64,000 nt of DNA from Halodesulfurarchaeum sp. (GCA_034520565.1 JAXHNL010000002.1:512001-576000), one strand, 5' to 3'; numbered from the stretch's first letter, positions 4,872-63,227 are shown. Numbers and translations are program-made. The notes: generated from the letters alone by a model not told the origin.

Positions 4872-4976
4872 GGGCACGTAGCTCAGTCCGGACAGAGCGT
4901 CGGACTTCTATCCCGCACAGTGTTGCTGTGGGGGGAAGACATCCGACGGTCGCGGGTTCGAATCCCGTCGTGCCCG
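4872..4976 (+). tRNA. tRNA-Arg(TCT) with 30-nt intron (4911-4940) at the canonical 37/38 position
   Basis: GGGCACG/CGTGCCC acceptor stem, TAGCTCAGTCCGGACAGAGC D-arm, TCGGA/TCCGA anticodon stem, anticodon TCT at 4907-4909, GGTTCGAATCC T-arm; CTTC/GAAG central helix of a bulge-helix-bulge splice motif. Confidence 0.93.
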
Positions 4977-4977
4977 T
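4955..4977 (+). repeat. attL core (tRNA-Arg 3' end)
   Basis: Exact repeat at 14003-14025. Confidence 0.9.
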
Positions 4978-5249
4978 GAGTTTCCTTTCGGTTTCCGACC
5001 CGTACAGAGAACGGACGGAGAGACGCCCAAACAACCGGATTTGGGCAGTTCTCAAGAATCACTAAGCCCCCTCGATCTGGAGTTCGTTCAGCAACTTTGT
5101 GGCCCCCTTCGCCCTCACTCGGTTTTCAGATTCGTCGAAAGGGCAAACCTCGGTCTTCATTCTGCCACACTCGGCCAGCCACCCACCCACCTCGCCCGGA
5201 CCAAAGCGGGGCCCACCTGGCCCCCGACGGTCCGCGGCGTTGTTCCTCG

Positions 5250-5452
5250 AGCTTTCACAGCCGACGAAAGCGAGGGAGAGGGAGATCGCGCACGCCCGGC
5301 AGCGCAGCGACCGTTGGGAGCGAGCAGCCCGGAACGGTCCGCGGGCGCCAACCGCGGACCGCACGGGATCGACCGGCCGGAAGCGGGCCCCCTCCCACGG
5401 GGGCCCGACCCGGAAGCCCGAGCGCATCCCCCGAGCCCGAAGGGCGAGGGGG
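5250..5452. promoter_or_regulatory. Hairpin cluster upstream of rep; probable rolling-circle origin region (dso/sso)
   Basis: Perfect stems CGGTCCGCGG/CCGCGGACCG (5335-5361) and CGGGCCCCC/GGGGGCCCG (5384-5407), plus CCCCC-GA-GCCC-GAA-GGGC-GA-GGGGG (5428-5452). Confidence 0.55.
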
Positions 5453-5494
5453 TTCCCGTCTGGCTGTGCGGTTTGCGGTGCGGTGGTGGTCGGT

Positions 5495-6844
5495 ATGCGT
5501 GAAGCAAACCGATCAGTCGAATCAGCCTCCGCATCGGAAAGCGCAAAACTAGATCAGTTCGCCTCTCGGCCTACCAAGACTAACTGTACAACCCCAGAAT
5601 CACGCTCTCTCCCGGCCGGTGAGAGCAGTTGGGAAGGATACTGGTGGAAACAGAAAAACGCACTCGTCGATCAGTTCGTCGAGGAGTATCCCAATCGGGC
5701 AGCCCGGCCAATTTCGGTTAGGGGCGGAGAACTTCTCCGCGAGGAGTGCACGCTCTCTCGACCGGAGGGAGAAGGACCCGTCTCAAAGTCGTGGTCGTCC
5801 GTTATGAACGAATACCTCAAGTGGTACAACGGATATCGAGATTCCCATCTGGTTTTTCGAGACCCCGACGGAAACCGAGTTCGTACCCAAATGGAAAACG
5901 CGCACATGCCCGAGTACGGCGACAAGTATTATGCCAAGTTGAAAGCCCTAGAGCGGCAGATCGCCTCCGAATACGATGATCTTCACATCGCGATGCTCAC
6001 CTTCACTGGCTCGACGAAGAACGGAAACGGCGGCTGGCGGGCTGTGTCAGACCACCTCCGGGACGTGATCGACAGTTGGCGGCCAGATCGCGGTCGAGGC
6101 GTCTATCACGCCCTTCGCGATTCACTCGAATGCCAAGAATGGGAATACGCCCTTGTCGTCGAGAAACACCAGAGTGGCTACGGGCACGTGCATTGTGCCG
6201 TGTTCGTCGACGGGGAGGTCGATGAGTCGGATTTTCATCCCGCTATTGATGCCCACCTTCGAACCTGCAACATCGCCCATCGGGATGCTCACAACTACTT
6301 TGCAGAGGATGAAACAACACGGCCCATTTCGGTGAGTAGTGTCGATACGGATCTCGATCCAAACCGGGGCGACGTGGACAAGATCACGAACGTTGGCACC
6401 TATATCGGCGAGTACATCGGCTCATACGGAGAACCATTGTTTGATCGGAGCATCGAAGAGCTAGCGTTTCGGGCAGCAGTATGGGCGACTGGGACCCAGC
6501 TCGTTCGGTTCAGTACGGGTGCAAATGAACTCATTCGGGAAGAACTTGACCGGGAACAAACCGAGTTAAAAGTGCCCGAGCTGGTCCAAAAACCTGAGTT
6601 CGATCCAGAAGCCGAAGATCCAGGAGAGACGGTTGAAGGTTCGCCTTTTGACGTGGTGAATAAAGGATGGTCACTCGAAGGCGTTGGAAGAGTGGATTCA
6701 GAGGGGGAGACAATATACGACGTTCAAAATAGTGGAGTGCAGTTTGTCGAAATAGCGGATTCTTCTCATCTAGATCCAATTAATTCTCAACCCCCGGATA
6801 GGCCACAACCGAGGGCTAAAGTTAGAGATTTAGAGAGCTTCTAA
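5495..6844 (+). CDS. rep: Rolling-circle replication initiator (HUH endonuclease), haloarchaeal plasmid/pleolipovirus type
   Basis: Motif 1 MLTFTG, motif 2 GYGHVHCAVF (HUH), motif 3 YIGEYIG; start placed at ATG 5495 within ORF 5099..6844. Confidence 0.85.
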   Translation: MREANRSVESASASESAKLDQFASRPTKTNCTTPESRSLPAGESSWEGYWWKQKNALVDQFVEEYPNRAARPISVRGGELLREECTLSRPEGEGPVSKSWSSVMNEYLKWYNGYRDSHLVFRDPDGNRVRTQMENAHMPEYGDKYYAKLKALERQIASEYDDLHIAMLTFTGSTKNGNGGWRAVSDHLRDVIDSWRPDRGRGVYHALRDSLECQEWEYALVVEKHQSGYGHVHCAVFVDGEVDESDFHPAIDAHLRTCNIAHRDAHNYFAEDETTRPISVSSVDTDLDPNRGDVDKITNVGTYIGEYIGSYGEPLFDRSIEELAFRAAVWATGTQLVRFSTGANELIREELDREQTELKVPELVQKPEFDPEAEDPGETVEGSPFDVVNKGWSLEGVGRVDSEGETIYDVQNSGVQFVEIADSSHLDPINSQPPDRPQPRAKVRDLESF

Positions 6845-7088
6845 CCAACCAGAATTTGTGAGATGTGTCGGATTATTAATTGCTAATTTTCAATAGTCGT
6901 CAAACTTGCAATGATTTATTTTCTTCATAGGGGTTTGGTTAAATTATTAAAATTCAACGAGACTACTACAGAGCATCAGATGCCATTATGAGATTTATTT
7001 TTCTACATGACAAGGCGATATAAACGTATCAATTTTTCCGGGAAAACCCTATTTAATTGTCCTAATAGAGTGTAGACAGGGTAAGAAG

Positions 7089-7439
7089 ATGAGTGTGCCA
7101 AAGAGGAAGACAAAAAAATCCAATTCTATTTTTAAAGAGAGTGTAGAAAAGGAACACGAATGGTTGGAAAGTTTGGGAGTGGAAGAACTATCAGACATTC
7201 TTCAGAGCCATGCGGGTGAGCTCTCCCTTCGGTTTGCATCTGAACTGAATGGTTACTATGTTGTGGCAAATGAGGATAACGAAGGTTTGCAAGTGATTTA
7301 TTCCGGTTTAAGTGGGCCGGAACACAAACCAGTGAAATTGTCGAAAGCTAATTTGCGGAGACTTCAATCAAAATCAGAGTTGATCAGATTCGTCCCATAT
7401 GAAGAGTCTCCATTTGATTCATTTGTAATTAAAAAATAA
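7089..7439 (+). CDS. Hypothetical protein (116 aa)
   Basis: AT-rich ORF with upstream TATA-like sequence; no recognisable motif. Confidence 0.55.
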   Translation: MSVPKRKTKKSNSIFKESVEKEHEWLESLGVEELSDILQSHAGELSLRFASELNGYYVVANEDNEGLQVIYSGLSGPEHKPVKLSKANLRRLQSKSELIRFVPYEESPFDSFVIKK

Positions 7440-7470
7440 TTGGCGCGCTATACCTCTTTAGGAGGGAGTT

Positions 7471-7832
7471 CTACCAGAATTCCCAAGTGGGTTGGCTAAT
7501 TGCGAGGGTCCGGTCAGCCAGGGTTTCCTCGATGAGACTGCGAATCTCACTTGTGGAAAGAGACTTGGCCTTCTTTTCCAAGTGCGGAGCGTGATGCCGC
7601 ACTATTCGAATAAGGTTCTCTCGAGAACCTCCCATAACCTCCAATTCGCCGTTAATCACCACAGAGGGAATTCGGTTAGGAACTTTTTCCCCCTGGATTC
7701 TCCCATTGGAAGTCATCTCTTTCGCATTTTGACGGACGTGTCCATCGCTGTAACCGGTTCCATCTGCGATATCGGCCACGCGCGAGCGTCCGTTTTTGAA
7801 AGGTGGGCTTGAATAGCATCTTTGACGGTCAT
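7471..7832 (-). pseudogene. Winged-HTH protein with -1 frameshift in an A5 run (real or sequencing error)
   Basis: SD GGAGGTGA (7839-7846) then ATG 7832 reads MTVKDAIQAHLSK; adding one A at 7793-7797 continues NGRSRVADIADGTGYSDGHVRQNAKEM (HTH). Confidence 0.6.
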
Positions 7833-8163
7833 TTGTTATCACCTCCATTGACGACCGTTTCTCTGCTCACAGCAGCAAGTTTCAAGTATTGGACCTCCGA
7901 AGGGAGATTTGTATCCCCAATAGATCCCATTGCCGTTGAGGCAGAGAGGCAAAACTGCAAGCCTTTCTCCTGGACCGAGAATGGCTGAGGCCGATGCGGT
8001 CGTGAGTGGTGATTTTCATCGCGTGTTATCACCTAGCGCCTAGTAAATGGTGCCCCCACTTAAGGGTTCCCCGTGGTAACGTTACTGTGTGAATGTATGA
8101 TACAGTGAATTAGTAATTATACTATAGAAAAAGATATCCGCATTTGGTGCTATACTTTTAGTT

Positions 8164-8931
8164 ATGCCTTACCAAGTGCCCGACCGCGTTCACCTAATGC
8201 CGGTGGGGTTCGAGGAAGACAGAATATTCAAAGTTGCAGAAGATCTGAAGGCTGATAAAGTCGTATTAATAGCAAATAGGGGTGATTCGGATGACGCTCG
8301 CAAACACCTAGAGAAGGCAAAGCAAAAATTGATCGATATGGGTTATGATCCATTGGTAAAAGAGTGTGATATCTTTGATTTATATGAATCATTGGGCCTT
8401 ATTGCGAATATAATTGCCCAGTTTTCTGATGATGAAGTATACGTAAATGTCTCAACGGGTAGTAAGGTAACCGCGATTGCAGGGATGATTGCAGCTATGA
8501 TGACCGGAGCAAATGCCTACTATGCACGAGCTAAAGAATATAGATCGGATGACGTACCCCGTGGAATAGATACCATTTTCCAGCTGCCAAATTATCCTAT
8601 TGAATCCCCTGAGAAAAAGCATGTGTTAGTCCTAAAATACTTAGAAAAAAATGGAGAAATAGATGTTACTAAAAGTGATCTGATTGACTTTGCGGAAAAT
8701 AGTGGCCTCAAGTTCATTTCAGATAAAGATGTGAGTAGAAAGGCGAAGTACCGGCTCTTAGACAACCATATCATTTCCCCACTACTTAATCGGGGGTATA
8801 TTCGGATAGAGGAAAAGGGACGTAACCGACTAGTTAGTATTTCAAATGACGGGAGGGATTTTGTAGAGGCCTTTGGTTTCATGTCAAAAACATACGAGGA
8901 AAATGAGAAGAGCGCTATAACTGCTAGATAG
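8164..8931 (+). CDS. CARF-like Rossmann domain + wHTH regulator (DUF6293/Csa3-like)
   Basis: VHLMPVGFEEDRI...ADKVVLI...VYVNVSTGSKVTAIAGM (CARF motifs) and C-terminal wHTH (KAKYRLLDNHIISPLLNRGYIRIEEKGRNRLVSIS). Confidence 0.8.
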   Translation: MPYQVPDRVHLMPVGFEEDRIFKVAEDLKADKVVLIANRGDSDDARKHLEKAKQKLIDMGYDPLVKECDIFDLYESLGLIANIIAQFSDDEVYVNVSTGSKVTAIAGMIAAMMTGANAYYARAKEYRSDDVPRGIDTIFQLPNYPIESPEKKHVLVLKYLEKNGEIDVTKSDLIDFAENSGLKFISDKDVSRKAKYRLLDNHIISPLLNRGYIRIEEKGRNRLVSISNDGRDFVEAFGFMSKTYEENEKSAITAR

Positions 8932-9093
8932 ATGAAAAGCGCATTATGGGATGGTTTTGAGTTTTTCTGAGAACCCTACTCCAAAAGGTTATTGTTCAAT
9001 ATTATGTAAAAGAATTTGATTTGGGTAAATGAAGTATGATCTGATGGGAGGCTGGACCGTTCGACCATTAACATTATGCAGTTTGGTTAGGAC

Positions 9094-12023
9094 ATGTATT
9101 CCATGGCTTCACCCTCCCCCGAAGCACGTTTTCATTCCAAGTTATTTGATAAATTAGACGACTATATTTATGAAAATGATACACCGTTCCATAATGTAAG
9201 CATTGAAGACCGTATGGAAGACGGGGGGCGAGCAGACATATTTGTTGAATCGAATCTAACAGAAAGTTTTGTTATAGAGGTCAAAAGGGACGATAAAAAT
9301 CCATTAAAGAAGGAGTTCATTACTCAAGCTAGAGATTACGCTAAAAGTAAGCAAGTTAGGTTCTTTGCCATTTGCAATTCAAATGATTATTTTTTATTTG
9401 ATTATCGGGGCGAGGTTAATGTAACCGATATTGATTTCCACTACCTAGATCTTCGCCAAGGGAATATCCGAGATCAAACGTTTGGTGGCCTGATCCCGAA
9501 GATGCTTCAAGCGGTACAATACCTTTCGAAGCATGACCAGCTTCCCAAGCAAAAGACACGCAAACAAATTGTTGGCGTAATTCGGTCATTCCATACCTCA
9601 ATTTGGCCCACCTACAAAGAATTGGCTAGGGAAGCATTTGGAAGAAACGCAGAATTCACCGAATACTTTGAAAATTGGGTAGCGGAAAACAACTATAGTC
9701 AAAGAGACAAGGATGAACAATTCGAAATTGCGGCTAAACAACATGCCTACCTCTTAGGTAATAAAATTCTATTCTATGACCTTATAAGGGACCGTACTCC
9801 AAGTGATATTCAAACAAAAAGTGGCTATAAACTAAATTCGCTTTACCAAACATCTTCCGGCAAAAATATAGATATTGAAGGTATAAAACCCAGAATTGAA
9901 CAGCAATTCAATCGTATTATAGAGGAGATTGATTACGAACCTGTTTTTAACGATTCTGATACTATATTTAGTTCCTTCCCTGAAAACCGAAAGACTCAGA
10001 GAGCTATCCAGACTCTTTTATCGAACTTTGAATCGAAACGCCTAGAAGAAGTGAACGAAGATCTCCTGGGTGAACTTTACCAAGAATTGATTCCTAAAGA
10101 TGAACGCCGGAATTTGGGGCAATTTTATACTCCGCCGTCAATTGCAGAAGCCCTAGTGAGATGGGCTATTGATTCATCGGATCAAGATGAGTTGCCTCGC
10201 ATTTTAGATCCAGCATCTGGGAGCGGGACATTTCCGGTTGAGGTATATGAGTATTTGCATCAGATATTTCCAGAAGCAAATCACCAAGAATTGATAGACT
10301 CGATATTTGCAGTTGACATTAACAAATTCCCCATTCATCTTACTTCCTTTAATCTTGCAATCCGAAATATTACCTCTGAGACAGATCAGATCCATACTAA
10401 AAACGGTTCATTCTTTGATGTATCTCCCACAGCAGAGACTCTAAATGCATTCACTAACAGCGGGCAAGAATTCACTGAAAATTTTGATGCAGTGGTGGGA
10501 AATCCGCCTTACATCTTCCATCAAAATTTGTTCCCTGATAAAGAGCATTTCCGCCATCATCTGACAAATTACCAAGACGAAAATGGGGAATCGCCATATT
10601 ATGACGGTGAAAAGAAATTTGATACCTATACTGACGCATATATTTACTTTGTGACTCACGCATTTCAATTTCTCAAAGAGGGGGAAAACTAGCATTCATA
10701 ATCTCTGCGAAGTGGTTAGATGTTGAATATGGATTCCCATTTCAGCAATTTTTGTTCGATAACGCCAAAATACAGTCAATTATTACATTTAACTCCCGTT
10801 CGTTCGAAGATGCATTAGTAAATACATCACTACTTTTAATTGAGAAGTGTTCAGATGCATCAGAGAGAAGAGAGACAGTAACCGACTTTATTCGCATTAA
10901 GAAGCAAACCCCTCCAAAGGACCTAGTAAGTACAATTGAACATGAGCGTACAATTCCTGAAGGAAAACCATACAAATTTGAATCACGTAGCGGATATCGT
11001 GTTTTTTCGCGTTCTCAAAGTGAACTAGAAAAAGAGGGACCACGGAAATTGGGATATTATCATTCTGCGCCCCGTCCCATTATTGACTTAATTGACAGTG
11101 GTTTATTCAAACCAATGAGTGACCTGCCATTCTCCCGTGTTCGTCGGGGTTACATGACTGGTGCTAATTCCTTCTTTATTTTAGATGAGGACGATGTCGC
11201 ACAATGGGGAATTGATCATAGATTTTTGAAGCCAGCAATCAAGAGTGTGAAAAATCTCCATGAGCTTAGAACTCCAGAGGATGGAATTGGTCTATATATT
11301 CTTGATCTTCGTGAATTTATAGAAGATACTCGCCATATCTGGAAAAATAGTGACAAAGATGAGTCGTTTGAAAATGCTGTGAAAGAGCGATTAAAGGAAG
11401 AAGGATACGAGAATACATATCAGTATATCAGATACGGTGAATCAGATGGGATTGATGAGATGTACAATCCTAGTCGGCGAAAGGTATGGTTCCAGCTTCC
11501 TGATTTGGTTGCTCCAGACGTACTCCACCCAGTTTTCTATAATGAAGATCTTTATACAATTAAGAACGACGGCGGATTAGTCCCATCGAATGCGATATTA
11601 TGTGTATGGTTTGAGGAATATCAAGACGTGATGAGAGGGATAATGAATTCAACATTATACAAAGTCATTCTAGAGGTTTGGGGCCGAAAGGAGGGAGGTG
11701 GGGCTCTTCAATTTCTTCCTGATGAGATAAAGTCAATTCCTATCCCAGACCCACGGTCGCTTGATGAAACAGCAAAAGAAACCGTAATTAAAAACGCTGA
11801 AAAACTTGAGTTTGATAGCGATGTTGGCCAAGATGATCTGGACAAGGCCATTCTTGATGGATACGATATACCCATTTCAGTTGACGATCTTCAACAGATG
11901 CAATCGCTAATGACAAAACAGAGGGTCGAAGGAGCAGAGGATACAACAATTCTTGTTCAGGATTTGGAGGAATTCGATGAATATGATCTCGAAGGGTTCA
12001 TAAAAAAGCAAAATGGGGGCTGA
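9094..12023 (+). CDS. Type IIG-like restriction-modification enzyme (PD-(D/E)xK nuclease + N6-adenine MTase + TRD), split by a -1 frameshift at ~10684
   Basis: RADIF...IEVK nuclease, LGQFYTP, ILDPASGSGTF (motif I), VVGNPPY (motif IV); GAG GGG GAA AAC TAG plus one G gives EGGKLAFIISAKWLDVEYG, which runs into ORF 10752..12023; ~976 aa if repaired. Confidence 0.85.
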
Positions 12024-12109
12024 GGGAACATTGTCAGTATCGTATGACTGACTTGGACATAATGTTGGCCTCAATCAGATTCTGCAATCCATGACTTTAC
12101 ATTCATTTT

Positions 12110-12532
12110 TTATTCCCATTCCATTTTTTCAGCCTCGTCAGCACTCGGGACTTTGAATTGATACCAATTCTCGGAGCGATCTCGAATTGGGTTATCCGCT
12201 ATTTCATTGGAGACCTTCTCAATCATTCTTGCTTTTCCTTCATCTGTGAGTTGGTAATAGCCCCGTTCCACTTTTTTAACGATACCCCCGGCTTCGAGTG
12301 TGTTTAGTCTCCGAGAAACAGCTCCCCTCGACCGGTCTATGTTTTTTGCGATCACTGATGGGCCTAACATTAAATCAGGTGATGCGAGCAAATCGACGAT
12401 TTCATAATCTAATTCCGTGAGCCAATCCGGAGGGTGGAGATCTTCGTCATAAAACTTGTCATCATCTATGTCAGCCCGGTATTTGTCCGGAATGACGTTT
12501 TCTGGGGGTTCGTATTCATTGTCCTCGGCCAT
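12110..12532 (-). CDS. Winged-HTH repressor (phiH1-repressor-like), divergent from the integrase
   Basis: WLTELDYEIVDLL...PSVIAKNIDRSRGAVSRRLNTLEAGGIVKKVERGYYQLTDEG. Confidence 0.8.
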   Translation of the reverse strand: MAEDNEYEPPENVIPDKYRADIDDDKFYDEDLHPPDWLTELDYEIVDLLASPDLMLGPSVIAKNIDRSRGAVSRRLNTLEAGGIVKKVERGYYQLTDEGKARMIEKVSNEIADNPIRDRSENWYQFKVPSADEAEKMEWE

Positions 12533-12793
12533 GAGTCCAGAAAAACTACCCATTACAAAAAAGGTACCGCATATATTGCATTACAAATAGTACGGTTACA
12601 AATTCATGATAAAGAATAAGTGACCCCCTGTTTAACCATTATTCGTCACGGCCCACTCGGAGCGTGACCCCGTCCAAAGAGACACGCCCCGAATCTCGCC
12701 GTGGCATCCAAGGTGGATGCATGCCCAAATACACACTTCAACACTGTAAGACTGCTGAAGGCGCGTACAGAATCAGAGCAGGTGCTATCCTCG

Positions 12794-13843
12794 ATGGGTG
12801 ACTTAGAACCCATCCCGCCTGCTGAGGCGGTCCAAATGTTTCACGAGGCTATGATCGACGAGCACGCGGAGTCCACTCGTCGAAGCGAAAAACATCGACT
12901 CAAAGCCTTCGTACAATTCTGCGATGAACACGGCATCGAGGACCTGACCGAATTAACGGGACGAGACCTCTATCTCTACCGGAGCTGGCGGAGAGAGGGC
13001 CAGGGCGATGACCGGGAACCGATAAAAACAGTCACGCTGAAAAGTCAGTTAGCGTCACTCCGTCGGTTCCTCCGCTTTGCTGCTGATATTGATGCTGTTC
13101 AAGCAACGCTCTATGAACAGGTTTCGCTGCCAGTCATGCGAAACGGTGAGGACGTCTCGGAATCAACTTTAGAGGCAGATCGGGCTCTCGAAATCCTGGA
13201 CTATCTCGAGCACGCACAACCCGCTTCGCGTGACCACATTATCGTTTTGCTCCTCTGGAAAACCGGGGCCAGAACCGGCGCAATTCGTGGGCTCGATCTC
13301 CGGGACTTGGATCTCGAAGGAACTCACCCACGCGTGTCCGGGCCGGCAATTCACTTCGTCCACAGACCCGATACGGGAACCCCGCTTAAGAACCAAGACA
13401 AGGGTACGCGGTGGAATCGAATCAGCGGGGTGACGGCCCGGTACATCTCTGATTACATCGAATACAACCGGCCCAACGTCACCGACGAACACGGGCGAGA
13501 ACCCCTCATAGCCACTCAGTACGGACGGCCGGCCGGGAATACACTCCGCACCACCCTGTATCGAGTGACCCGGCCCTGCTGGCGAAACGAACCGTGCCCC
13601 CACGATCGGGATACTGAGACTTGTGAGGCCACCCATTTGGATCACGCCAGCAAGTGCCCCTCCGCTCGATCACCCCACGATCTCCGAAGTGGGAGAGTGA
13701 CCTACTATCGTCGAGAAGACGTCCCCCGCCGAGTCGTCAAAGATCGGCTCAATGCCAGCGAAGACATTCTAGATCGGCATTATGACCGGCGTTCGGACCG
13801 AGAACAGGCAGATCAGCGAAGCGACTACCTCCCAGACCTATAA
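12794..13843 (+). CDS. int: Tyrosine integrase, SNJ2/pleolipovirus-like family
   Basis: TGARTGAIRGLD, HRPDTGTPLKN, Cys/His insert RPC...CPH...C...KCPS, SPHDLRSG, ILDRHYD; ends ~50 bp before the att copy. Confidence 0.92.
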   Translation: MGDLEPIPPAEAVQMFHEAMIDEHAESTRRSEKHRLKAFVQFCDEHGIEDLTELTGRDLYLYRSWRREGQGDDREPIKTVTLKSQLASLRRFLRFAADIDAVQATLYEQVSLPVMRNGEDVSESTLEADRALEILDYLEHAQPASRDHIIVLLLWKTGARTGAIRGLDLRDLDLEGTHPRVSGPAIHFVHRPDTGTPLKNQDKGTRWNRISGVTARYISDYIEYNRPNVTDEHGREPLIATQYGRPAGNTLRTTLYRVTRPCWRNEPCPHDRDTETCEATHLDHASKCPSARSPHDLRSGRVTYYRREDVPRRVVKDRLNASEDILDRHYDRRSDREQADQRSDYLPDL

Positions 13844-13891
13844 TAATGCCATGTGCCAACACTTGCAGGCCTAATTCCGAGATAGCGGGAC

Positions 13892-14025
13892 CCCGTCGTG
13901 CCCGTACAGCGAGGAGCGGAGCGACGAGCGAACCGGCGCGCATGGGATTTGAGCCCTGGAAGGCGCGCGCAACGAACGGAGTGAGTGAGCACGGCTTCCT
14001 CTGGTTCGAATCCCGTCGTGCCCGT
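13892..14025 (+). repeat. Right-end module 1: 14-bp att copy + hairpin element + 23-bp att copy
   Basis: CCCGTCGTGCCCGT at 13892 and 14012; GGGATTTGAGCC...GGTTCGAATCCC stem between them. Confidence 0.85.
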
Positions 14026-14267
14026 TCGGAGACAATCGTTTTCGACCATTCACAGAAAACCGTGAGAGCCAAGAAGACGGGTATTCTGGCCGTTCTCAAA
14101 GAACGTTTAGCCAACGGAATTTGGTGTCCATTCAGCATCTGAACGTCCCCTCATAAACAAATGGCCCATCATGCAGGGAGAACGAATCTGTTATTATAAC
14201 TAGGTTATACTCTATCCATAAAATTAGAAAAAGTGTTATCGGCAATACCTCTGAGAATATTTATAGT

Positions 14268-15632
14268 ATGGACAAATCGTTGCTCGCCACCTCATCAAAA
14301 ACTGTTCGAGAATCCGCTAAAGAGCTTGGTAAAATAGTAGAAACTGAGGAGTTGTATCTGCCACAAAATTCGCCAGTTTTCTATTTTTTGGATAGGTTTG
14401 GGTCGGGCTCTGTTAATGAATTTATTGAGAAATGGCCAAATTCGGAGTTTGAACCTATGGGGATGGCAATTGAAACTCCCGAAATCATTACATATTTGAT
14501 TAAAATTCATAGAAATCATGGAGCTTTCAATGGGAAACAGAAGAGGATAATTCAAGATATGATTGACAAAGTAATCCAAAATCAAAACGTCCACGGGCAG
14601 ATGTCAAATTACCATTCTAAACAGCTTAGAGCACTAATTTTATTCGATCCAAAATCTGAACCAGCAATAAATGGAGTGAGTCATTTGACATCAGAGGTTA
14701 TTCCCAATACAGCCTATACAAACAGATCACGTAGAATCCAAGAGTTAGCAAACGGAATTATTTCTCTTTGCGAATTAGATTATTACACATATGAGAATGA
14801 GATTGAGGAGGCAGCGTCACAAATTCGAGATTTAATTGATGACGGGCCTAAAAATGATGATCTTGAGAATATATATGACCCAAGCAATCTTGCAATAGCC
14901 CTTTCCAAACTCCAAAATTATAGGTTCGAATTTGAACAAAAATTGTCGGAAGTACTTATGAGAGAATTATCAAATAGAGATGACTTAAAAATTGGTTTGG
15001 ATGATATTGATGGACTATTTAGTCCCTACATAATCATTGGGAAGTCTTTAGTTGGCCTCTTGGCCCTTGGAAAAGGACCCAAAGCCCCGATTTATCAAAA
15101 TGATTGGGAAAAAGAACTCGAAAGGCAACGATTGGCCCGTTCTAAGGCCTCATTTGTTTCCACTCTCCCCGCGAGCGAGTTACAGTCACGTCGAATAGAG
15201 ATATATGAGAAGGCCTATTCTATCATTAATTCAGTTCAAAGCGAGTTGCGAATTTCCACACTAATGATGGATATGTTTTACAATGAAATTCTCGACCTTA
15301 TTGAGCAAGATTCTGATGTTCAAGTTCGCATACTTGCCAGACGAGAAGGACCAAAAGGGGAACGAAGGAGGATGAAAGAAGCCGTGATGAAGGAACTAGT
15401 TAAAGCAGGTGAATCGGAAATCGTTCGAGGAGACCATTTACTCCATAGTCGGATGATTATTGGTGATGACTCTGAACTGCTCGTTTCATCTGCAGATTTG
15501 ACACGAGATCGGCTATACGATGAATTTAATGCAGGGATCTATACTCGTGACCCAGACGCGGTAAATGAAGCTATTGAGTATTTTGACAATATTTGGAATC
15601 AAGGCAAATCGCTCGATGTGGAAAAGTATTAG
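14268..15632 (+). CDS. Protein with helical N-terminal region and C-terminal PLD-like (HKD-variant) domain
   Basis: ELRIST...VQVRILAR...LHSRMIIGDDSELLVSSADLT...EFNAGIYTRDPDAVNEAIEYFDNIW. Confidence 0.75.
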   Translation: MDKSLLATSSKTVRESAKELGKIVETEELYLPQNSPVFYFLDRFGSGSVNEFIEKWPNSEFEPMGMAIETPEIITYLIKIHRNHGAFNGKQKRIIQDMIDKVIQNQNVHGQMSNYHSKQLRALILFDPKSEPAINGVSHLTSEVIPNTAYTNRSRRIQELANGIISLCELDYYTYENEIEEAASQIRDLIDDGPKNDDLENIYDPSNLAIALSKLQNYRFEFEQKLSEVLMRELSNRDDLKIGLDDIDGLFSPYIIIGKSLVGLLALGKGPKAPIYQNDWEKELERQRLARSKASFVSTLPASELQSRRIEIYEKAYSIINSVQSELRISTLMMDMFYNEILDLIEQDSDVQVRILARREGPKGERRRMKEAVMKELVKAGESEIVRGDHLLHSRMIIGDDSELLVSSADLTRDRLYDEFNAGIYTRDPDAVNEAIEYFDNIWNQGKSLDVEKY

Positions 15633-16018
15633 ACTCTGTTGAAAATTTTTTTGATCAGTGGTATTTTGAGAACGGTCTCCTGAATACACCGCTCGTATTC
15701 ACCAATCGCATTCTCGGGAATCCCCCGGCACATCTTAATTTTTGTAGCATGGTCTTGTTGGCCAGGAAGCGGTCCAGAAAGTCTTGGGAAGGGAGTATTA
15801 GTTGATTCGGACTGAGCCCCCGCACTTTTGCTGTGCTATTTGAGAAGGTGAGGACGATACTAGTAGACAAGTGTTGCTCTCTTCGTGAAGTTTCTTACAG
15901 TGAAATGTGTCATGTCCGCCTGAGGGAGGTCAGTTAAATCATGGTAATGGGGCACATACCATTATGTCGAAAAGACATCCCTAAAGATGTCATCAACATT
16001 TAACATACGTTTGATAAT

Positions 16019-17578
16019 TTATTGTCGAATTATCTCATTCTGTAATGACCCGGGACTATTTCCAGTAATTCTATTTCTCATCTCAACTGCCTGGGACTCA
16101 GTCATATTAGATATCAAATCGGCTACAATCCTTGCCCGTAAGGTACAATCTTCGCTATCTATATTCTTAATTCGCTCCCGGTACGGTTCCATAATTAATG
16201 AGGTGTCTACAGATTCTGGGTCCGCTTCGTTGTACAATTCTTCGAATAGCACGTTAATAATTTCCTTTTGACCGGCTTGCTGAGCCGAAAGGGTAGGATT
16301 GCTTATCACGTAATAGAAGGTCAATTCCTTCAAAATTTCAATCTCTTTCATTAATTCTTCATCAACGTCCAACGTGGGCAACCCATCAACTGAATGGCCA
16401 ATTACACCAACATTACGTTCCGAAGGTTCCCGCTCCGTTGCTTCAATGTACCATCCTATTAAGGAGGATATTAACTTATTGAGCTGATTCCTTTCCCTTT
16501 GAGTACCCTCATATGGAGTAAATAGCGAGTCCCCAATAAATGCGAAATCTGTTAGCTTTATTAGAAAATCCAATACTTCAGGAAGAGTTGCTTCAACACC
16601 TGATTTATCAGAAACATATTCTGCAAAATCAAATACTTCCATATTATGTGATTTAGAGTGCTCCACAATTAGTCGATCATAATCCGGTAATTCATCAATT
16701 CCAGCCTCATCTGGTAGTTGTTTGAATAGCTCTTTTGCTTCCCGAAGCAGTTGATCAAGCGGAAGAAGACCACTTCTATAGAAATCCTCCACGTCGTGTA
16801 TCGCATAGGTCAAATCATCCGCAAAGTCCATGACTTCTGCTTCAATAACTTTATTGCGTCCACCGTCTGTCCCTGCCCTTGCAAAGTTAAAGTGGCTATT
16901 TTCGGAAGGGTAGTACCCCCATTTGTCATCAGTATCTTTGTCAGAAGCGATGTCTTCAGCATCTCGCTTCCACGGGTATTTTAGCATAGCATTTAAAGTA
17001 GCCCTAGTCAAATCCATCCCACATATACCGGGGCGATGCGTTCCCAGTTTAGTCACGGCCCGGAATGATTGGGCATTACCCTCAAATCCCTGGATGTTAT
17101 TATTCTCAATATCATCTGAATCTTCCTGGCCAGCTTGTTCTTTTGATTTTTGTCGGATTTTCAAATCTAGTAAGTTCTCAGTCTCGTGGCCAAACGGGGG
17201 ATGGCCAATATCATGGGCCAAGCAAGCAGCTTCCACTACATCTTCATTCAGATATTGCCCAAGGTTCTCAAATTCGCCACCATAATAATCTATTAATAAC
17301 TCAGCCAATCTACGGCCAACTTGGGCGACTTTCAAGGAGTGTGTGAGTCGGTCATGGTAAAGGTAGGATTCTCCAGTCCTAGCAACTTGTGTGACGTCTT
17401 TCAACCGCCTGAACTCACGGCTGTAGAGGATTCGGTCGCGATCTCGTTCAAAGGGAGTTCGCTGGTCACTAGGGTCAATGTTAATTGCTGCATCAGCTTC
17501 TAATTGTGAATCGTACTCTTCCTCCAAATTTTGGTCTAGTGCTGAAGGACGGCGCTCTCGAGGAAAATTTGAAGGCAT
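16019..17578 (-). CDS. dgt: dGTP triphosphohydrolase (dGTPase, HD superfamily)
   Basis: RTPFERDRDRILYSREFRRLKDVTQV, HDRLTHSLKVAQVGR, AHDIGHPPFGH, FEGNAQSFR, KYPW, ADDLTYAIHDVED, RIVADLISNMTE. Confidence 0.92.
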   Translation of the reverse strand: MPSNFPRERRPSALDQNLEEEYDSQLEADAAINIDPSDQRTPFERDRDRILYSREFRRLKDVTQVARTGESYLYHDRLTHSLKVAQVGRRLAELLIDYYGGEFENLGQYLNEDVVEAACLAHDIGHPPFGHETENLLDLKIRQKSKEQAGQEDSDDIENNNIQGFEGNAQSFRAVTKLGTHRPGICGMDLTRATLNAMLKYPWKRDAEDIASDKDTDDKWGYYPSENSHFNFARAGTDGGRNKVIEAEVMDFADDLTYAIHDVEDFYRSGLLPLDQLLREAKELFKQLPDEAGIDELPDYDRLIVEHSKSHNMEVFDFAEYVSDKSGVEATLPEVLDFLIKLTDFAFIGDSLFTPYEGTQRERNQLNKLISSLIGWYIEATEREPSERNVGVIGHSVDGLPTLDVDEELMKEIEILKELTFYYVISNPTLSAQQAGQKEIINVLFEELYNEADPESVDTSLIMEPYRERIKNIDSEDCTLRARIVADLISNMTESQAVEMRNRITGNSPGSLQNEIIRQ

Positions 17579-17589
17579 TCCGAAAATGC

Positions 17590-17817
17590 CTAAGCTGAGA
17601 CCGATGCGTGGCTTGCCAATTTATACTCAAAGCCAGGGCTGGTTCCAATTTGGCCTTCATCAATCAGTTCTTGCAGAATATCTTTTACATCTTCCCTTCC
17701 TTCAGCGGATGTATTTTTCATCAAATGGTCTAGGGTCACTGGGCCATCACTTTCTATCAAGGCTTCAAATATTTCCGTCCGGAGAGAGTCTTCGCTTCCG
17801 CCACTATTTCGAATCAT
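17590..17817 (-). CDS. Small winged-helix protein (75 aa), 11 nt upstream of the dGTPase
   Basis: LRTEIFEALIESDGPVTLDHL...EDVKDILQELIDEGQIGTSPGFEYKL fits a wHTH pattern. Confidence 0.7.
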   Translation of the reverse strand: MIRNSGGSEDSLRTEIFEALIESDGPVTLDHLMKNTSAEGREDVKDILQELIDEGQIGTSPGFEYKLASHASVSA

Positions 17818-18082
17818 ACCTTGAGGATAGATTGGGTTCTACTTAGTTCTGATGTCAAATGGGGTACTTTGAATGCCAAATAATGGTACTAATCTAGACC
17901 GGATTATAGCCACGATTGCACCCAATTAACGAGACGTAATCATGAGGTTTTAAGTCGGTATATATGGTCTCCAAAATACATCACAAAGGAACCCCCCCCC
18001 AAGAGATTCAAAATCGGGAGATGTATGAAAATATCACCAAGCCACCTTACAAAATTGTAGGGTTGTGTCTATCTGGGCGAAA

Positions 18083-18350
18083 TTATAGCCAGAGGATCTT
18101 CTCAGCTTCGCGACTTTCCACCCCTTCCCCGTGTTTCCCAAAGTAGAGCCGGTGAAGAGTCGGGTAACCCTCTCACCCGCTCCATTGCATCACTACGCTC
18201 GGTAGAACGCCGGCCTCAAGAGTGAGGTTTCCCTAGGTCCGGTGGGGATCGTGCGGCCCGAGGTACCGCCAGCCTCGATAGGGTCCTGCTTCTCAAGTTC
18301 CTCCGCAACGGTGGCAACCCATCGGCGAATCGTCCTCGTCGTGTCGTCAA
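18083..18350 (-). pseudogene. C-terminal remnant of a XerC-like haloarchaeal tyrosine recombinase
   Basis: Across frames: TTRTIRRWVATVAEELE / RGWRYLGPHDPHRT*GNLTLEAGVLPSVVMQWSG*EGYPTLHRLYFG / REAEKILWL*; stop codons where Trp is expected. Confidence 0.7.
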
Positions 18351-18453
18351 AGACCGGCACAATGCCAGCGAAAACATTCTTGACCGGCATTATGAACGGC
18401 GTTCGGACCGCGAACAGGCTGATCAGCGGAGCGACTACCTCCCAGACCTACAA
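18335..18453 (+). pseudogene. 3' remnant of an SNJ2-like integrase
   Basis: PRRVVKDRHNASENILDRHYERRSDREQADQRSDYLPDL, nearly identical to the C-terminus of the integrase at 12794-13843. Confidence 0.9.
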
Positions 18454-18503
18454 CAATGACATGTGCCAACACTTGCAGCGCAAATTCCGAGATAGCTGAA
18501 CCC

Positions 18504-18622
18504 CCCATCGTGCCCGCTTCTGCGACGAACGGAGGTGAGGAGCGAAGCGGCGCATGGGATTTGAGCCCTGGAAGAGGAGCGAGCGCAGCGAGCGAGTCTT
18601 CCTTCGGTTCGAATCCCTTCGT
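18504..18622 (+). repeat. Right-end module 2: degenerate att + hairpin element + partial att
   Basis: CCCATCGTGCCCG (18504-18516), CGCATGGGATTTGAGCCCTGGAAG, GGTTCGAATCCCTTCGT (18606-18622). Confidence 0.8.
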
Positions 18623-18823
18623 AGGCGATTTTAGGTGGCAATATTACTTTTAAAGGCCATACAATAGAGATGGGATGATTATATAGGGCAAGTTTTGGGC
18701 AGCTTGATATCAATCATACTCCGGTATTTCCAAAATATTGGGTTGGCGATTTTTTAATAATCTAATCTAAAAATATAAATTTTGCAAAAGAAACATTATG
18801 GCGGAGAAAGATAGGCCAGATAA

Positions 18824-19690
18824 ATGAAGCGAACGATAAGATTTGCTCGGCTTTCATTTGAAAGAAAGTTAAGTCACTATGAAAGCGACGAAAACCCCAT
18901 AGAACGGCGAAAGAAGGCGTTATTAGATGTGATTGATTTTGATTTGGATGTCAACCGCCTTCTTCTTGAGACCGATCTAAAAATGATACGGGATAGAGGA
19001 GATTGGTATTTTGGTGATGTGGAAACAGAAGAGTCCGTAATTTCAGGATGGATAGGTAAAGAAAAAGAAGAGATAGAGAAGCACGTTGATGAAGATAAAA
19101 AAGGATTCAAAGAGACGGAAGAAAGCAAGGCAGATGTGGCATTTTTCGTAATTGACGTAGCCAATTCTGTAATGGCCTATGAGTTTAGATCAAATGTTGG
19201 AGAAAAAGCACCATACCGAATTCTGGAAGGTGTATTTAATGTCTACCACAAAGGTGAAGAAGAACTCTCTATCTCTCCAATAGTTGATAAAGAGGAAGTC
19301 CGATCAGAGCTTGATAGGATTTCTAGAGTAACTCAGGTGAAGTTCCAAGGTCTAAAGCCAACAAATCCAGATCGAACTGATTTATCAAAGCCAATGGATG
19401 AGTTTCTACAAGAAGGAGGCATTGACCGCTTATTTTTCAATGGCAAAAGTGATGATTCGACAAGAGGAATAAATTTGGAGGTGCCACTTTTGAATGGGGG
19501 TCTTAGCTTAGCCGAAGAAGGATATGGTAGTGCTACGATTAGTGGGAAGATGAAATCAGGAGAAGACATAGTCGTTACAACGGATGAAAAACAAATAGAG
19601 TCAGAAGTTGATGAGGCGAAAACCGACAGAATGTATAGAAAAAGACTAATAAATGAAATCGGAGAAACACTGGAGGATCTCGAAAATTGA
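18824..19690 (+). CDS. Soluble hypothetical protein, possibly DUF4747-like; candidate defence component
   Basis: 288 aa; ISPIVDKEEVRSELDRISRVTQVKFQGLKPTNPD and SLAEEGYGSATISGK patterns; TGATG-coupled to the downstream TM gene. Family call tentative. Confidence 0.7.
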   Translation: MKRTIRFARLSFERKLSHYESDENPIERRKKALLDVIDFDLDVNRLLLETDLKMIRDRGDWYFGDVETEESVISGWIGKEKEEIEKHVDEDKKGFKETEESKADVAFFVIDVANSVMAYEFRSNVGEKAPYRILEGVFNVYHKGEEELSISPIVDKEEVRSELDRISRVTQVKFQGLKPTNPDRTDLSKPMDEFLQEGGIDRLFFNGKSDDSTRGINLEVPLLNGGLSLAEEGYGSATISGKMKSGEDIVVTTDEKQIESEVDEAKTDRMYRKRLINEIGETLEDLEN

Positions 19691-20274
19691 TGGATAACTC
19701 TAATATGTTTTATCGGTTAAAGGAATTCGGATTTAGAAATATTATCTTGAGTTACGATACCCTTGGAGGGGGTATCTCGTTTTTTATAGTATACATATAT
19801 CTTGATGGGAGCGTGCCTCGGGAAATTGGATCAGACATACTGCCAACTATCGCGGTAGTATCGTCCACGTTGTTTGCCATCGTTCTTACTGGATTTACTA
19901 TAATCACATCTTTTACAGACCGTTACTTCCTTTATGCCTGGAAAGAAGTGGGCGACTTTGATGGAGTTGTTACCCTCTTTCAGTATAATCTCGCCTTGCC
20001 AATAATTGTTATTTTGGCATCTGTATCACTTATAATAAATTATAATGGGGTCGGGATGATGATCTTGATCTCTCTATTCGTATACATGATCTTGTCCTTA
20101 CTTAATTTAGTGGGATTTATTTCCAAGTACTCATTGCAAAGAGCAGAATTCGTTAAACAACAAATGGAGAAATCTGCTAAACAATCACCAAAAAACCAGG
20201 ATGATGATCCAACGTTGTCAACAAAACAGCTTAAAAAAGTCAAAAACTTATTAACTGAATACCCAGATGAATGA
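19690..20274 (+). CDS. Integral membrane protein (~4 TM) with charged C-terminal tail
   Basis: Four hydrophobic stretches; ATG overlaps the upstream stop codon. Confidence 0.75.
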   Translation: MDNSNMFYRLKEFGFRNIILSYDTLGGGISFFIVYIYLDGSVPREIGSDILPTIAVVSSTLFAIVLTGFTIITSFTDRYFLYAWKEVGDFDGVVTLFQYNLALPIIVILASVSLIINYNGVGMMILISLFVYMILSLLNLVGFISKYSLQRAEFVKQQMEKSAKQSPKNQDDDPTLSTKQLKKVKNLLTEYPDE

Positions 20275-20311
20275 TTATTTATATTGAAGATTTGGGATTG
20301 TGACTAAGAAT

Positions 20312-20540
20312 TTAGAGATTTGGAGATTGCCCCACAACCGGCAACCGCACCGTAAACACCGCCCCGCGAGGCGCCACGTCCACCTCGCCCCCGTACCGCT
20401 CGACCAGCGTCTCCACGATGTACAGCCCCAGCCCGGTCCCCTCGCTTTCGGGGTTGCGAACGCCCTCCTCGAAAATGGGCACCTTCTTGCCGTCGGGCAC
20501 GCCCGGCCGTCGAGAAGCACCACCAACACCCACCGACCGC
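20312..20540 (-). pseudogene. Histidine-kinase HATPase_c C-terminal remnant
   Basis: VLVVLLDG/PGVPDGKKVPIFEEG...GTGLGLYIVETLVERYGGEVDV...GAVFTVRLP with a frameshift in DGPG; no upstream HisKA. Confidence 0.7.
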
Positions 20541-61886: not shown

Positions 61887-63227
61887 ATGCGCTCGTATCT
61901 CTCGAAGATGGTGACGACGACGACGCTTCCGCCCCGGGAACGGCGGGAAGAACTCGTCGCCGAGGCAGGCTACAACGTCTTCAATCTCGACTCCTCGGCG
62001 GTCTACGTCGACCTGCTCACCGACAGCGGCACCGGGACCATGAGCGACGAACAGTGGGCGGCCCTCTTCCGCGGCGACGAGGCTTACGCCGGCAGTTCGA
62101 GCTTCGCAGCCCTCGAGGAAGCCGTCGAGGCGGTCATGGGCTTCGAGCACGTCGTGCCCGCCCACCAGGGGCGAGGCGCCGAGAACGTCCTCTATGGCAT
62201 CCTCTTCGAAGAGGGCGATGTCGTCCCGAACAACACCCACTTCGACACGACGCGTGCCCACGTCGCAAACGCCGGGGCCGAGCCAATCGACTGCCCGGTC
62301 GAAGACGCCATGGACCCCGAGACCGGCGGGGACTTCAAGGGTAACCTGGACGTCGAGGCCGTTCGCTCGCTGGCCGACGAACACGGCAGCGAGGCGATTC
62401 CCGCTGTCATCTTGACGATCACGAACAACTCGGCCGCAGGCCAACCAGTGAGTATGAAAAACACCCGGCAGGCAAAGGGACTCGCGGACGAACTGGGGGT
62501 TCCGCTGGTCGTCGACGCCTGCCGCTTTGCCGAGAACGCGTACTTCATCCAGCAGCGAGAGCCGGGGTACGCGGACGCGCCGGTCGCCGAAATCGCTCGG
62601 GAACAGCTCTCGTATGCCGACGCGCTGGTTATGAGTGCGAAAAAGGACGGCATTACAAACATCGGGGGGTTCGTCGCCGTTCGTGATCCGGACCTGTTCG
62701 AGCGGGTGAAACAGCGGGCGATCCTCTACGAGGGCTTTTCGACCTACGGCGGGATGGCCGGCCGGGACATCGAAGCGCTCGCGGTCGGACTCCGGGAGGC
62801 CGTCGAGGACGAGTACGTCGCCCAGCGGGTGGGCCAGACCCGGGAACTCGGGCAGCGCCTCGCGGACGCGGGGGTGCCTGTATACGAGCCGATCGGGGGC
62901 CACGCCGTCTACATCGACGCCGCCGCGGCCCTTCCGCACGTTCCCGACGACCAGTTCCCGGGCCAGGCGCTGGTCGTGGAACTCTACCGCGAGGGCGCGG
63001 TGCGCGGGGTCGAACTCGGGAGTTTCGCCTTCCCGGAAACCGACCGCCCGGAACTCGTCCGGCTCGCGCTCCCCCGGCGAACCTACCATCGCGAGCACAT
63101 CGACCACGTCGTCGAGACCGCGGCGGCCGTGCTGGACCGATCCGAGTCCGTGCCGGGCTACGAGGTCGTCTGGGAGCCGCCCCGGAAGGAACTCCGCCAC
63201 TTCTCGGCCGAACTCGAACCGGTCTGA
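61887..63227 (+). CDS. tnaA: Tryptophanase (beta-eliminating lyase family)
   Basis: DLLTDSGT, GDEAYAGS, HQGRGAE, HFDTT, TNNSAAGQPVS, MSAKKD, GGHAVY, RLALPRRTY. Confidence 0.85.
   Translation: MRSYLSKMVTTTTLPPRERREELVAEAGYNVFNLDSSAVYVDLLTDSGTGTMSDEQWAALFRGDEAYAGSSSFAALEEAVEAVMGFEHVVPAHQGRGAENVLYGILFEEGDVVPNNTHFDTTRAHVANAGAEPIDCPVEDAMDPETGGDFKGNLDVEAVRSLADEHGSEAIPAVILTITNNSAAGQPVSMKNTRQAKGLADELGVPLVVDACRFAENAYFIQQREPGYADAPVAEIAREQLSYADALVMSAKKDGITNIGGFVAVRDPDLFERVKQRAILYEGFSTYGGMAGRDIEALAVGLREAVEDEYVAQRVGQTRELGQRLADAGVPVYEPIGGHAVYIDAAAALPHVPDDQFPGQALVVELYREGAVRGVELGSFAFPETDRPELVRLALPRRTYHREHIDHVVETAAAVLDRSESVPGYEVVWEPPRKELRHFSAELEPV

Follow-up and report, generated by a model that had tools for sequence, protein, structure and literature searches.

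The hairpin module that lies behind a tyrosine integrase gene in the 64,000-nt stretch of haloarchaeal DNA analysed here (the window) is, taking the observations as a whole, probably one unit of a family of tRNA-trailer repeats which, among the genomes searched, is confined to the Halobacteriales. A unit starts at the first base past the tRNA discriminator, comprises one or two hairpins, frequently with a GCGNAGC mini-hairpin as cap, and ends in a copy of positions 52-73 of the tRNA (the tail copy). Units are 81-177 nt long, contain no ORF and are all in tRNA orientation, starting from the tRNA 3' end; a tRNA gene with units is followed by a single one or by a tandem array with at most five. 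In the tRNA-sense strand, but not in its complement, the tail copy pairs with an antisense arm lying upstream of it and composed of an antisense T-loop (GGATTYGARCC) and a partly tRNA-specific extension, and each tail copy is followed, like the tRNA itself, by a (C)TTCT-type trailer. This family of hairpin units duplicating the tRNA tail is apparently undescribed.

Archaeal viruses and plasmids integrate mainly at tRNA genes, and the units change how att sites, borders of islands and islands in tandem are to be read in haloarchaeal genomes: when a tail copy is met 100-150 bp past a tRNA or an integrase gene, this alone does not mark the border of an element. The units would offer secondary attB sites, which may spare the real tRNA gene. 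They point to a novel kind of DNA copying between tRNA loci or to a putative novel class of tRNA-trailer RNAs.

Organization of the island at tRNA-Arg(TCT)

The anchor of the whole island is a tRNA-Arg(TCT) gene that is missed by ARAGORN in default mode and found with the intron option; its intron sits after the anticodon loop. It is followed by an integrated element (E1), a core, unit A with its tail copy, a second inserted element (E2), a degenerate core (core'), unit B and a remnant (E3). The GC content falls from ~65% to ~40-50% between 4978 and ~20323, and the host flank restarts at ~20324. The features are as follows.

4872-4976, plus strand: tRNA-Arg(TCT) with 30-nt intron (ARAGORN, intron option; genome 516872-516976)
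4964-4977, plus strand: attL core of E1 (exact 14-mer at 4964)
4978-13891, plus strand: E1, integrated element (Pfam, GC content, absence at tRNA-Arg(TCT) in same-genus genomes)
5099-6844: E1, Rep of the DUF1424/RCR type (Pfam, E 2e-52)
8164-8931: E1, HFX_2341-like protein (Pfam)
9094-10692: E1, N6 DNA methylase (Pfam)
12110-12553, minus strand: E1, HTH protein (Pfam)
12701-13843: E1, tyrosine integrase (Pfam)
13892-13905, plus strand: attR core of E1, tRNA positions 61-73 plus T (exact repeat)
13906-13931, plus strand: unit A, 5' part, small purine-rich hairpin with GCGGAGC apex
13932-13955, plus strand: unit A, antisense arm, pairing with the whole tail copy via G-U pairs (RNA fold)
13945-13955, plus strand: unit A, antisense T-loop GGATTTGAGCC
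13956-14002, plus strand: unit A, inner hairpin with GGAAG/CTTCC stem and ACGGAGT apex
14003-14025, plus strand: unit A, terminal tail copy (tRNA-Arg(TCT) 52-73 plus T), 3' arm of the hairpin; attL of E2
14026-18503, plus strand: E2, second inserted element (Pfam; alignment of 13700-14040 with 18290-18640)
14268-15632: E2, PLD-like nuclease (Pfam)
16019-17578, minus strand: E2, HD phosphohydrolase (Pfam)
18242-18499: E2, C-terminal integrase remnant of 85 aa, aligning together with its 3' flank to the end of the intact integrase gene
18504-18517, plus strand: core', degenerate attR of E2, CCCATCGTGCCCGC; the homologous bases in relatives are the tRNA's own 3' end
18518-18627, plus strand: unit B, 5' hairpin first (alignment with relatives, RNA fold)
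18557-18567, plus strand: unit B, antisense T-loop
18568-18605, plus strand: unit B, inner hairpin
18606-18627, plus strand: unit B, decayed tail copy
18628-20323, plus strand: E3, low-GC remnant with two ORFs without Pfam match

A single 4178-nt contig of sequencing run X1 covers 12560-16737 with zero differences and confirms the assembly of this segment, though run X1 may be its source. A read joint from 4978 to 13892 in run X5 (depth 2, side 28) is too weak for an empty allele. In E1, a 423-aa ORF without Pfam match (10752-12023) adjoins the N6 methylase, and the left end of the element (4978-5045, CCCGTACAGAGAACGG...CCGGATTTGGGC) resembles the start of unit A (CCCGTACAGCGAGG...GGGATTTGAGCC); this sequence may represent either an older unit that was truncated or a portion of the element's arm. 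The two cargo genes of E2 (14268-17578), which encode a PLD-like nuclease and, on the other strand, an HD/HD-associated phosphohydrolase, are possibly a defence pair. The sole default ARAGORN call in the window, an 87-nt 'tRNA-Ala(TGC)' on the minus strand (62211-62297), has no normal T-loop and the tail GTTGTTCGGGACGACATCGCCCTC, and may be a false positive.

Repeats and folds of the two window modules

The direct repeat CCCGTCGTGCCCGT, which an earlier note on this DNA had reported 120 bp apart, was recovered by a search of the window as exact copies at 13892 and 14012; a third exact copy, which that note had not used, lies at 4964. With up to three mismatches allowed, 43 matches were obtained (19.3 expected). 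The 19-mer GGGATTTGAGCCCTGGAAG occurs exactly at 13944 and 18556 only, 0.01 occurrences being expected. In copy 1, both the outer stem of 12 bp, which includes two G-T pairs, and the inner GGAAG/CTTCC stem were confirmed, and the statement that the second copy keeps the stems while its loops differ is borne out by alignment of 13700-14040 with 18290-18640. The description as a module bracketed by att copies is fully true of copy 1 alone, because the repeats bracketing copy 2 are degenerate: its 5' repeat at 18504, CCCATCGTGCCCGC, has two mismatches, and four of the 13 positions in its 3' tail, CCCTTCGTAGGCG, deviate from CCCGTCGTGCCCG.

The 23 nt at 14003-14025, presumed to mimic a tRNA T-arm, proved to copy without a mismatch the 3' terminus of tRNA-Arg(TCT) from position 52 onwards, that is, positions 52-73 plus one base (4955-4977; 23/23 identity). 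Between 13000 and 19500, neither an Rfam scan with E values up to 10, which returned four weak and unrelated matches, nor ARAGORN in default mode or with the intron option detected a tRNA. A tRNA gene or pseudogene as the nature of the module was rejected, only positions 52-73 being copied and a cloverleaf with 5' acceptor strand, D arm and anticodon arm being absent.

With RNA parameters, the plus strand of 13906-14025 folds at -56.4 kcal/mol (z -2.72; 2 of 200 shuffles equal or better) and that of copy 2 (18518-18622) at -41.6 kcal/mol (z -1.10; 27 of 200), and the complementary strands gain nothing over shuffles (z +0.14 for copy 1, +0.76 for copy 2). With DNA energy parameters, neither window copy beats its shuffles (z -0.24 and -0.13).

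The units belong to the tRNA flank

In five same-genus genomes (G001, G002, G007, G008 and G011), all of which have sequence past tRNA-Arg(TCT), this gene is directly followed by one to three units, and E1 and E2 are absent. In G009, the first 15 nt of a unit are followed by the contig end, and at three further fetched loci a tRNA tail copy is absent. The segment 18504-18622, which comprises core' and unit B, aligns with the tRNA end and the first unit in G011, G007 and G001; the match to G009 covers only 18504-18531 (core and first 14 nt of the unit), because the contig stops there. In G001, it is the third unit that unit A resembles. Both units of the window belong to tRNA-Arg(TCT), from which they were split by two insertions of integrase-type elements. 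Of the two repeats that had been taken for att copies around each module, the upstream one represents the attR core of the element inserted there, and the downstream one is the tail copy of the unit itself. As judged from this sequence comparison, the units would predate the insertions of E1 and E2 at this tRNA gene.

The same conclusion on the origin of the upstream repeat is reached from the integrase side. In 16 of 16 integrase loci, the stop codon is followed after ~45 nt by a core that equals CCCAYCGTGCCCG or nearly so (1-3 bases off in three of the 16), and the bases ahead of each core (…CCGAGATAGC…), as those before the core at 13892, are element-derived and conserved behind integrase homologues. 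The direct repeat of a tRNA end by which an integrase element is recognised is found at 13892-13905 for E1 and at 18504-18517 for E2, and not in the module itself. A unit follows the core in just seven of the 16 loci, plus two degenerate cases, and the rest have none, so that the proposed link of the module to the integrase is unsupported. One Saliphagus strain has the same integrase flank both with a unit (L152, chromosome) and without one (L156, a 28.7-kb contig with element sequence instead), and the unit must therefore be regarded as part of the host tRNA flank. The integrase element was also seen without a unit at L145, L146, L153 and L158, and many tRNAs with units have no integrase or Rep nearby.

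Two proposals on the role of the module become unlikely because units occur without the integrase and the integrase flank occurs without a unit. One was a minimal non-autonomous element using the integrase. The other was an attC-like site of the rolling-circle element, i.e., a folded single-stranded recombination site of E1, of the integron attC or CTX-phage attP type, whose stem would recreate the duplex of the tRNA 3' end. Such a site would fit the rolling-circle-type Rep of E1 (DUF1424, E 2e-52), the hairpin stem as a duplex copy of tRNA 52-73, the strand-specific structure and the very high stability in DNA of GCGNAGC mini-hairpins given in the available part of PMC13037366, but it is at odds with the five same-genus genomes carrying units at tRNA-Arg(TCT) without E1 and E2, with the units at many tRNAs that have no Rep or integrase in the vicinity, with the five loci at which the same integrase element has no unit, and with DNA-parameter folds no better than those of shuffles. 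We consider this reading very improbable.

Distribution and association with tRNA genes

When the source genome (1.86 Mb in two contigs, 80.7% complete) was searched with 13846-14040, many partial matches were obtained whose flanks share one layout: a tRNA gene, 20-100 nt that often form a hairpin, the antisense T-loop GGATTYGARCC, a covarying inner hairpin, and GGTTCRAATCC with the 3' strand of that tRNA's own T-stem and acceptor. Among the 42 tRNAs with a recognisable T-loop, 17 have a copy of their own positions 52-73 at most 1 kb downstream on the same strand, up to four mismatches being allowed, and none of the 42 has such a copy upstream; with the tail of another tRNA as control, downstream matches dropped to 1 of 42. 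The tRNA-specific 13-nt tail alone was found for 18 of 42, compared to two matches in 1722 tests with foreign tails. Tandem units are frequent in this genome, for example at Leu-TAG, Ser-TGA, Val-GAC, Leu-GAG and His.

The pattern GGATTYGARCC-N25-55-GGTTCRAATCC is present in 25 of 41 genomes (the source genome and relatives), including all 11 other same-genus genomes, and in a phylum sample of 151 genomes it is present in 12 of 19 members of the same order and in 0 of 132 elsewhere, all these counts being lower bounds because an exact pattern and sampled genomes were used. The reversed pattern, which served as control, gave no match in any of the 41 genomes. From five genomes of three families, 35 pattern loci with 39 distinct sites were fetched. 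At 37 of these sites a same-strand tRNA ends at most 700 nt upstream, and at 34 of the 37 the 11 nt after the T-loop fit the tRNA tail with no more than two mismatches; since the loci were selected by the pattern, this linkage is no unbiased census. In one exception (L042), an inserted element separates the unit from tRNA-Arg(TCG), like the units of the window from their tRNA; in the other (L067), the unit is located behind a tRNA missed by ARAGORN. Units are also located at integrase homologues of Salinarchaeum, Natrarchaeobius, a Natrialbaceae archaeon, Saliphagus, Haloarcula and Halostagnicola, and cultured carriers include Salinarchaeum laminariae, Natrarchaeobius chitinivorans and Haloarcula salina.

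BLAST searches gave two short partial matches only in plasmid records and none in phage records. In the IMG/VR viral contigs, the pattern occurs at 75 loci, of which 72 represent another family (see below) and three are chance matches inside phage ORFs; no unit is present on the haloarchaeal viral contigs searched. No description of the units was found in the literature, though the repeat surveys of Haloquadratum and Halobacterium might list something similar in their supplementary tables. In their available parts, a paper on spaced motifs (PMC5217627) and a review of archaeal tyrosine recombinases (PMC8371274) make no mention of such units, and a Haloquadratum genome comparison (PMC3119063) describes MITEs, PATEs and SMRs and nothing of this layout.

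Structure and conservation of the units

In 84 unique units, 8-22 of the 22 tail-copy bases are paired (at least 13 in 81 of the 84; median ~18). The inner segments, which lie outside the selection by the search pattern, have a mean z of -1.94, with z < -2 in 31 of 61, and show compensatory stem changes such as GGAAACC/GGTTTCC versus GGAAATC/GATTTCC and an apex of GCGAAGC versus CCGAAGG. Double changes were also identified by RNAalifold, for instance in column 6/75 (UA 33, CG 19, UG 5, CA 4); the combination of MAFFT and RNAalifold recovered just 14 pairs, because the inner stems vary in length. In 71 of 79 units, the base in the antisense T-loop agrees with the local T-loop variant. Replacement of the tail by a foreign one costs 3.6 kcal/mol on average, and the own tail ranks in the best 10% in 36 of 79 units or, with every distinct tail entered only once, in 20 of 46. 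This energy test, which allows G-U pairs, replaced a comparison of arm and tail restricted to Watson-Crick pairs, because the signal of the latter was modest (self 4.59 versus non-self 3.57; 23 of 79 in the top 10%). The earlier suggestion that the structure is under selection is supported for the large family by the inner-stem covariation, the match of T-loop variants and the fold advantage of the own tail.

The excess of G-U over A-C cells in the outer stem (50 versus 7) points to pairing in the tRNA-sense strand. However, 29 of the 50 G-U cells come from one position (GAGCC), which may have been inherited jointly by many units and carries most of the strand asymmetry, and in folds of whole units the G-U totals do not differ between strands (145 versus 158). 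Of the 84 units, 72 have a more stable fold in the sense strand than in the complementary one. The motif GCGNAGC, which according to the available part of PMC13037366 forms an extraordinarily stable DNA mini-hairpin, is found on the sense strand of 43 of 84 units and on the other strand of 3 of 84, at a density of 4.95 per kb versus 0.27 genome-wide. Since 103 of 147 matches to the motif are not located within 1 kb downstream of a tRNA, this cap is not exclusive to units; hairpins with a GAGCGAAGCGAG apex also occur away from tRNA arrays in the source genome (C2:355930, 762606 and 762720).

A function at the RNA level, in which the units are putative read-through parts of tRNA transcripts, can be proposed tentatively, and it can hold together with the best explanation given above. 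In variants of this idea, the hairpin, the tail copy and the T-rich start of the next unit form a fail-safe terminator or processing site, or the antisense arm merely insulates the duplicated tail from mispairing with the 5' half of the tRNA. The structure favoured solely on the sense strand in both window modules and prevailing there in the family, the uniform orientation from the tRNA 3' end, the tolerance of the outer stem for G-U far above A-C, the trailer after each tail copy and the hairpin base, which repeats the pairing of acceptor and T stem, all speak for this idea. It accords less well with a GCGNAGC apex known as a DNA mini-hairpin, with the variation of unit number and type among close genomes at one and the same tRNA, which would be odd for an essential role, and with the absence of units from about 25 of 42 tRNAs of the source genome and of the pattern from 16 of the 41 genomes searched.

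Proposed spread between tRNA genes

A unit behind tRNA-Leu(TAG) of G001 and one behind tRNA-Val(CAC) of G010 are 90.5% identical over 158 nt in BLAST. Their near-identity extends from the first base past the discriminator to the end of the T-loop block, and the tails, together with a small number of arm bases, are those of the local tRNA. In close genomes, 5' parts and hairpins are combined differently, as would be expected of tandem arrays recombining at shared blocks. Unit A of the window begins with TACAGCGAG, and so does the unit behind tRNA-Lys(CTT).

Conservative recombination would import the old tail, and foreign tails are rare; a process in which the tail derives from the target is therefore favoured. 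We suggest, with low certainty, that units would spread between tRNA genes by a copy-and-paste process at the DNA level, which would retain the generic interior and take the 22-nt tail from the target tRNA. The route ranked first would be template switching during replication or gene conversion anchored on the 11-nt T-loop block, followed by a transposition-like insertion through a novel mechanism with 22-bp target duplication and, in third place, by movement driven by an integrase. The hairpin itself would be kept by selection acting on the single tRNA-sense strand, either as read-through RNA or as single-stranded DNA.

Movement by tRNA-targeting tyrosine integrases in trans is the core of another explanation, according to which the units are gene-less att-flanked elements or CIME-like remnants with attP arms. 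Integrases crossing over in the T-loop reportedly leave direct repeats that extend from the T-loop interior to the tRNA end. The units are indeed flanked by direct repeats from the T-loop to the tRNA end, form tandem arrays and are located at integration hot spots, and the unit of L059, with its inner hairpin inverted between the T-loop arms, also agrees with a recombinase product. Yet conservative recombination cannot yield a new tRNA-specific tail on both sides, and the ~90%-identical Leu and Val units have local tails, with foreign tails within arrays being rare (2 of 1722). Moreover, the integrated elements examined have cores of 13-14 nt rather than 22, no such hairpin is found at the ends of E1, of the island behind tRNA-Arg(TCG) or of L156, and plasmid and phage records and the haloarchaeal viral contigs searched are devoid of units. 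Duplex DNA of merely 100-150 bp cannot close into a circle. This explanation appears unlikely to us.

The L059 unit mentioned above (734-802, G025, behind tRNA-Phe) has a pyrimidine-rich loop and is the only case of an inverted inner hairpin among 63 hairpins; the inversion would be the product expected of a flip between the inverted T-loop arms.

Mature tRNA as the source of the tail copies was rejected, as no reverse transcriptase was found and the repeat runs 12-23 nt past the tRNA end in some loci (G002, 45 nt; G010, Arg-TCG). Reverse transcriptase (PF00078) was found in 0 of 41 genomes, in a search whose control matched 3 of 14 known genomes, and a retroelement of the SINE-like, target-primed kind thus lacks its enzyme among these 41. 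The Y1 transposase (PF01797; 16 of 41 genomes) does not track the units: it is absent from the unit carriers G000 (the source genome) and G008 and present in the pattern-negative genomes G013, G022, G028, G034 and G035.

A more far-reaching view of the whole, which we regard as rather doubtful, is that the units constitute an undescribed class of self-propagating, gene-less hairpin units of haloarchaea. They would home to any tRNA 3' end by pairing of antisense T-loop and T-loop, and insertion would duplicate tRNA positions 52-73 and build arrays of decoy tails from the tRNA-proximal end, these decoys giving viruses and plasmids additional places to integrate; the units might also be freed from read-through transcripts and then mimic the top half of a tRNA (acceptor and T stems).

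Tail copies at the borders of further elements

The first base of E2 (14026) immediately adjoins the tail copy of unit A. Behind tRNA-Arg(TCG) of the source genome, an island of 7.9 kb is preceded by a unit with its tail copy and ends in a third tail copy. At L151, L154 and L157, the order is integrase, core, unit, tail copy and next element, and at L154 the sequence past the tail copy begins like the post-core sequence of L146 and L156 (tgcgaaa…), which we read as the probable left arm of the same element family. With further elements beginning at them, the tail copies give the impression of additional integration sites. For E2, attB would have been the tail copy of unit A, and units would by this means multiply the integration sites. 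Alternatively, unit A may have joined at the tRNA after the distal element, the single genome at hand fitting either order of events. The earlier idea of a device that rebuilds a fresh attB and lets the array grow is borne out by these junctions in one half only; the terminal tail copy would predate the insertions, however, and is not rebuilt each time.

Comparison with known systems

Like the attC sites of integrons, the units form arrays of short modules, each ending in an imperfect palindrome with inverted core boxes, here GGATTYGARCC and GGTTCRAATCC around a covarying inner stem (61 aligned hairpins), a likeness of form only. In both systems the structure is strand-specific and conserved above the sequence, and distal units look older. 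Unlike integron cassettes, the haloarchaeal units are gene-less, their arrays start at tRNA genes, the post-core repeat is tRNA-specific and 22 nt long, folding and recombination as single-stranded DNA are putative, and an IntI-type integrase or attI was not identified. With the attP/dif arrays of the (+)ssDNA CTX phages, they share an inverted pair of target-like sequences that gives a hairpin mimicking the duplex target, and a target copy at the far side, so that arrays can grow. In contrast to these, the units are chromosomal, and occur order-wide at many tRNAs without phage or plasmid, any dependence on a Xer-type recombinase being putative; a site on the single-stranded genome of a mobile element, as in the CTX type, was not found in plasmid and phage records and the haloarchaeal viral contigs searched.

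REP/BIME sequences and the haloarchaeal PATEs and MITEs are likewise small, non-coding, hairpin-forming and strand-oriented intergenic repeats in multiple copies with several subfamilies. The units differ from them in their strict location behind tRNA genes, the last 22 nt of which they duplicate, and from REP/RAYT and IS200/IS605-type (PATE) systems in showing no correlation with a Y1 transposase. Compared to MITEs and IS elements, the palindrome is internal or 3'-terminal and not at both ends, and the duplication is at least 22 nt; terminal inverted repeats of a known IS or a parent IS were not seen among the sequences examined.

Direct repeats of tRNA 3' ends, tandem build-up together with full elements and usable extra att sites are shared with CIMEs and accretion arrays; in the units, however, the interior is a conserved structured module common to different tRNAs rather than a random remnant, and the tails are always those of the local tRNA. 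CRISPR arrays and casposons offer an analogy only: insertion would take place beside a fixed 'leader' with duplication of the whole target of 14-30 bp, and the proximal copies are exact and the distal ones often degenerate (read by eye, degeneration rises in eight arrays, falls in three and is equal in the rest), whereas the 'spacers' of the units are homologous hairpin modules.

Related structures

Behind tRNA-Pro(TGG) of G001 and G010 (L035 and L046), a second kind of unit without T-loop was observed, in which the antisense acceptor end TGGGACC is followed by a small hairpin with GAGCGAAGCGA apex and then by GGCGGTCCCA. It suggests that the principle of antisense tail, hairpin and tail is broader than the T-loop pattern. 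Behind several arrays (own tRNA-Phe; L036, L045, L060 and others), there is an element of ~100 nt with the order CCAC(C)TTTTT, hairpin and AAAAA(C)TTGGGG/CTGGACCAAAAAG, i.e., a long palindrome with A/T arms.

The 72 viral contigs mentioned above (within L070-L144; GC ~62%, many from one metagenome) carry a near-perfect palindrome of inverted 3' halves of a bacterial-type tRNA-Met, with arms of ~26 nt and a loop of 7-15 nt, frequently close to contig ends. Its architecture, an inverted tRNA tail, is analogous to that of the haloarchaeal units, and the family is unrelated.
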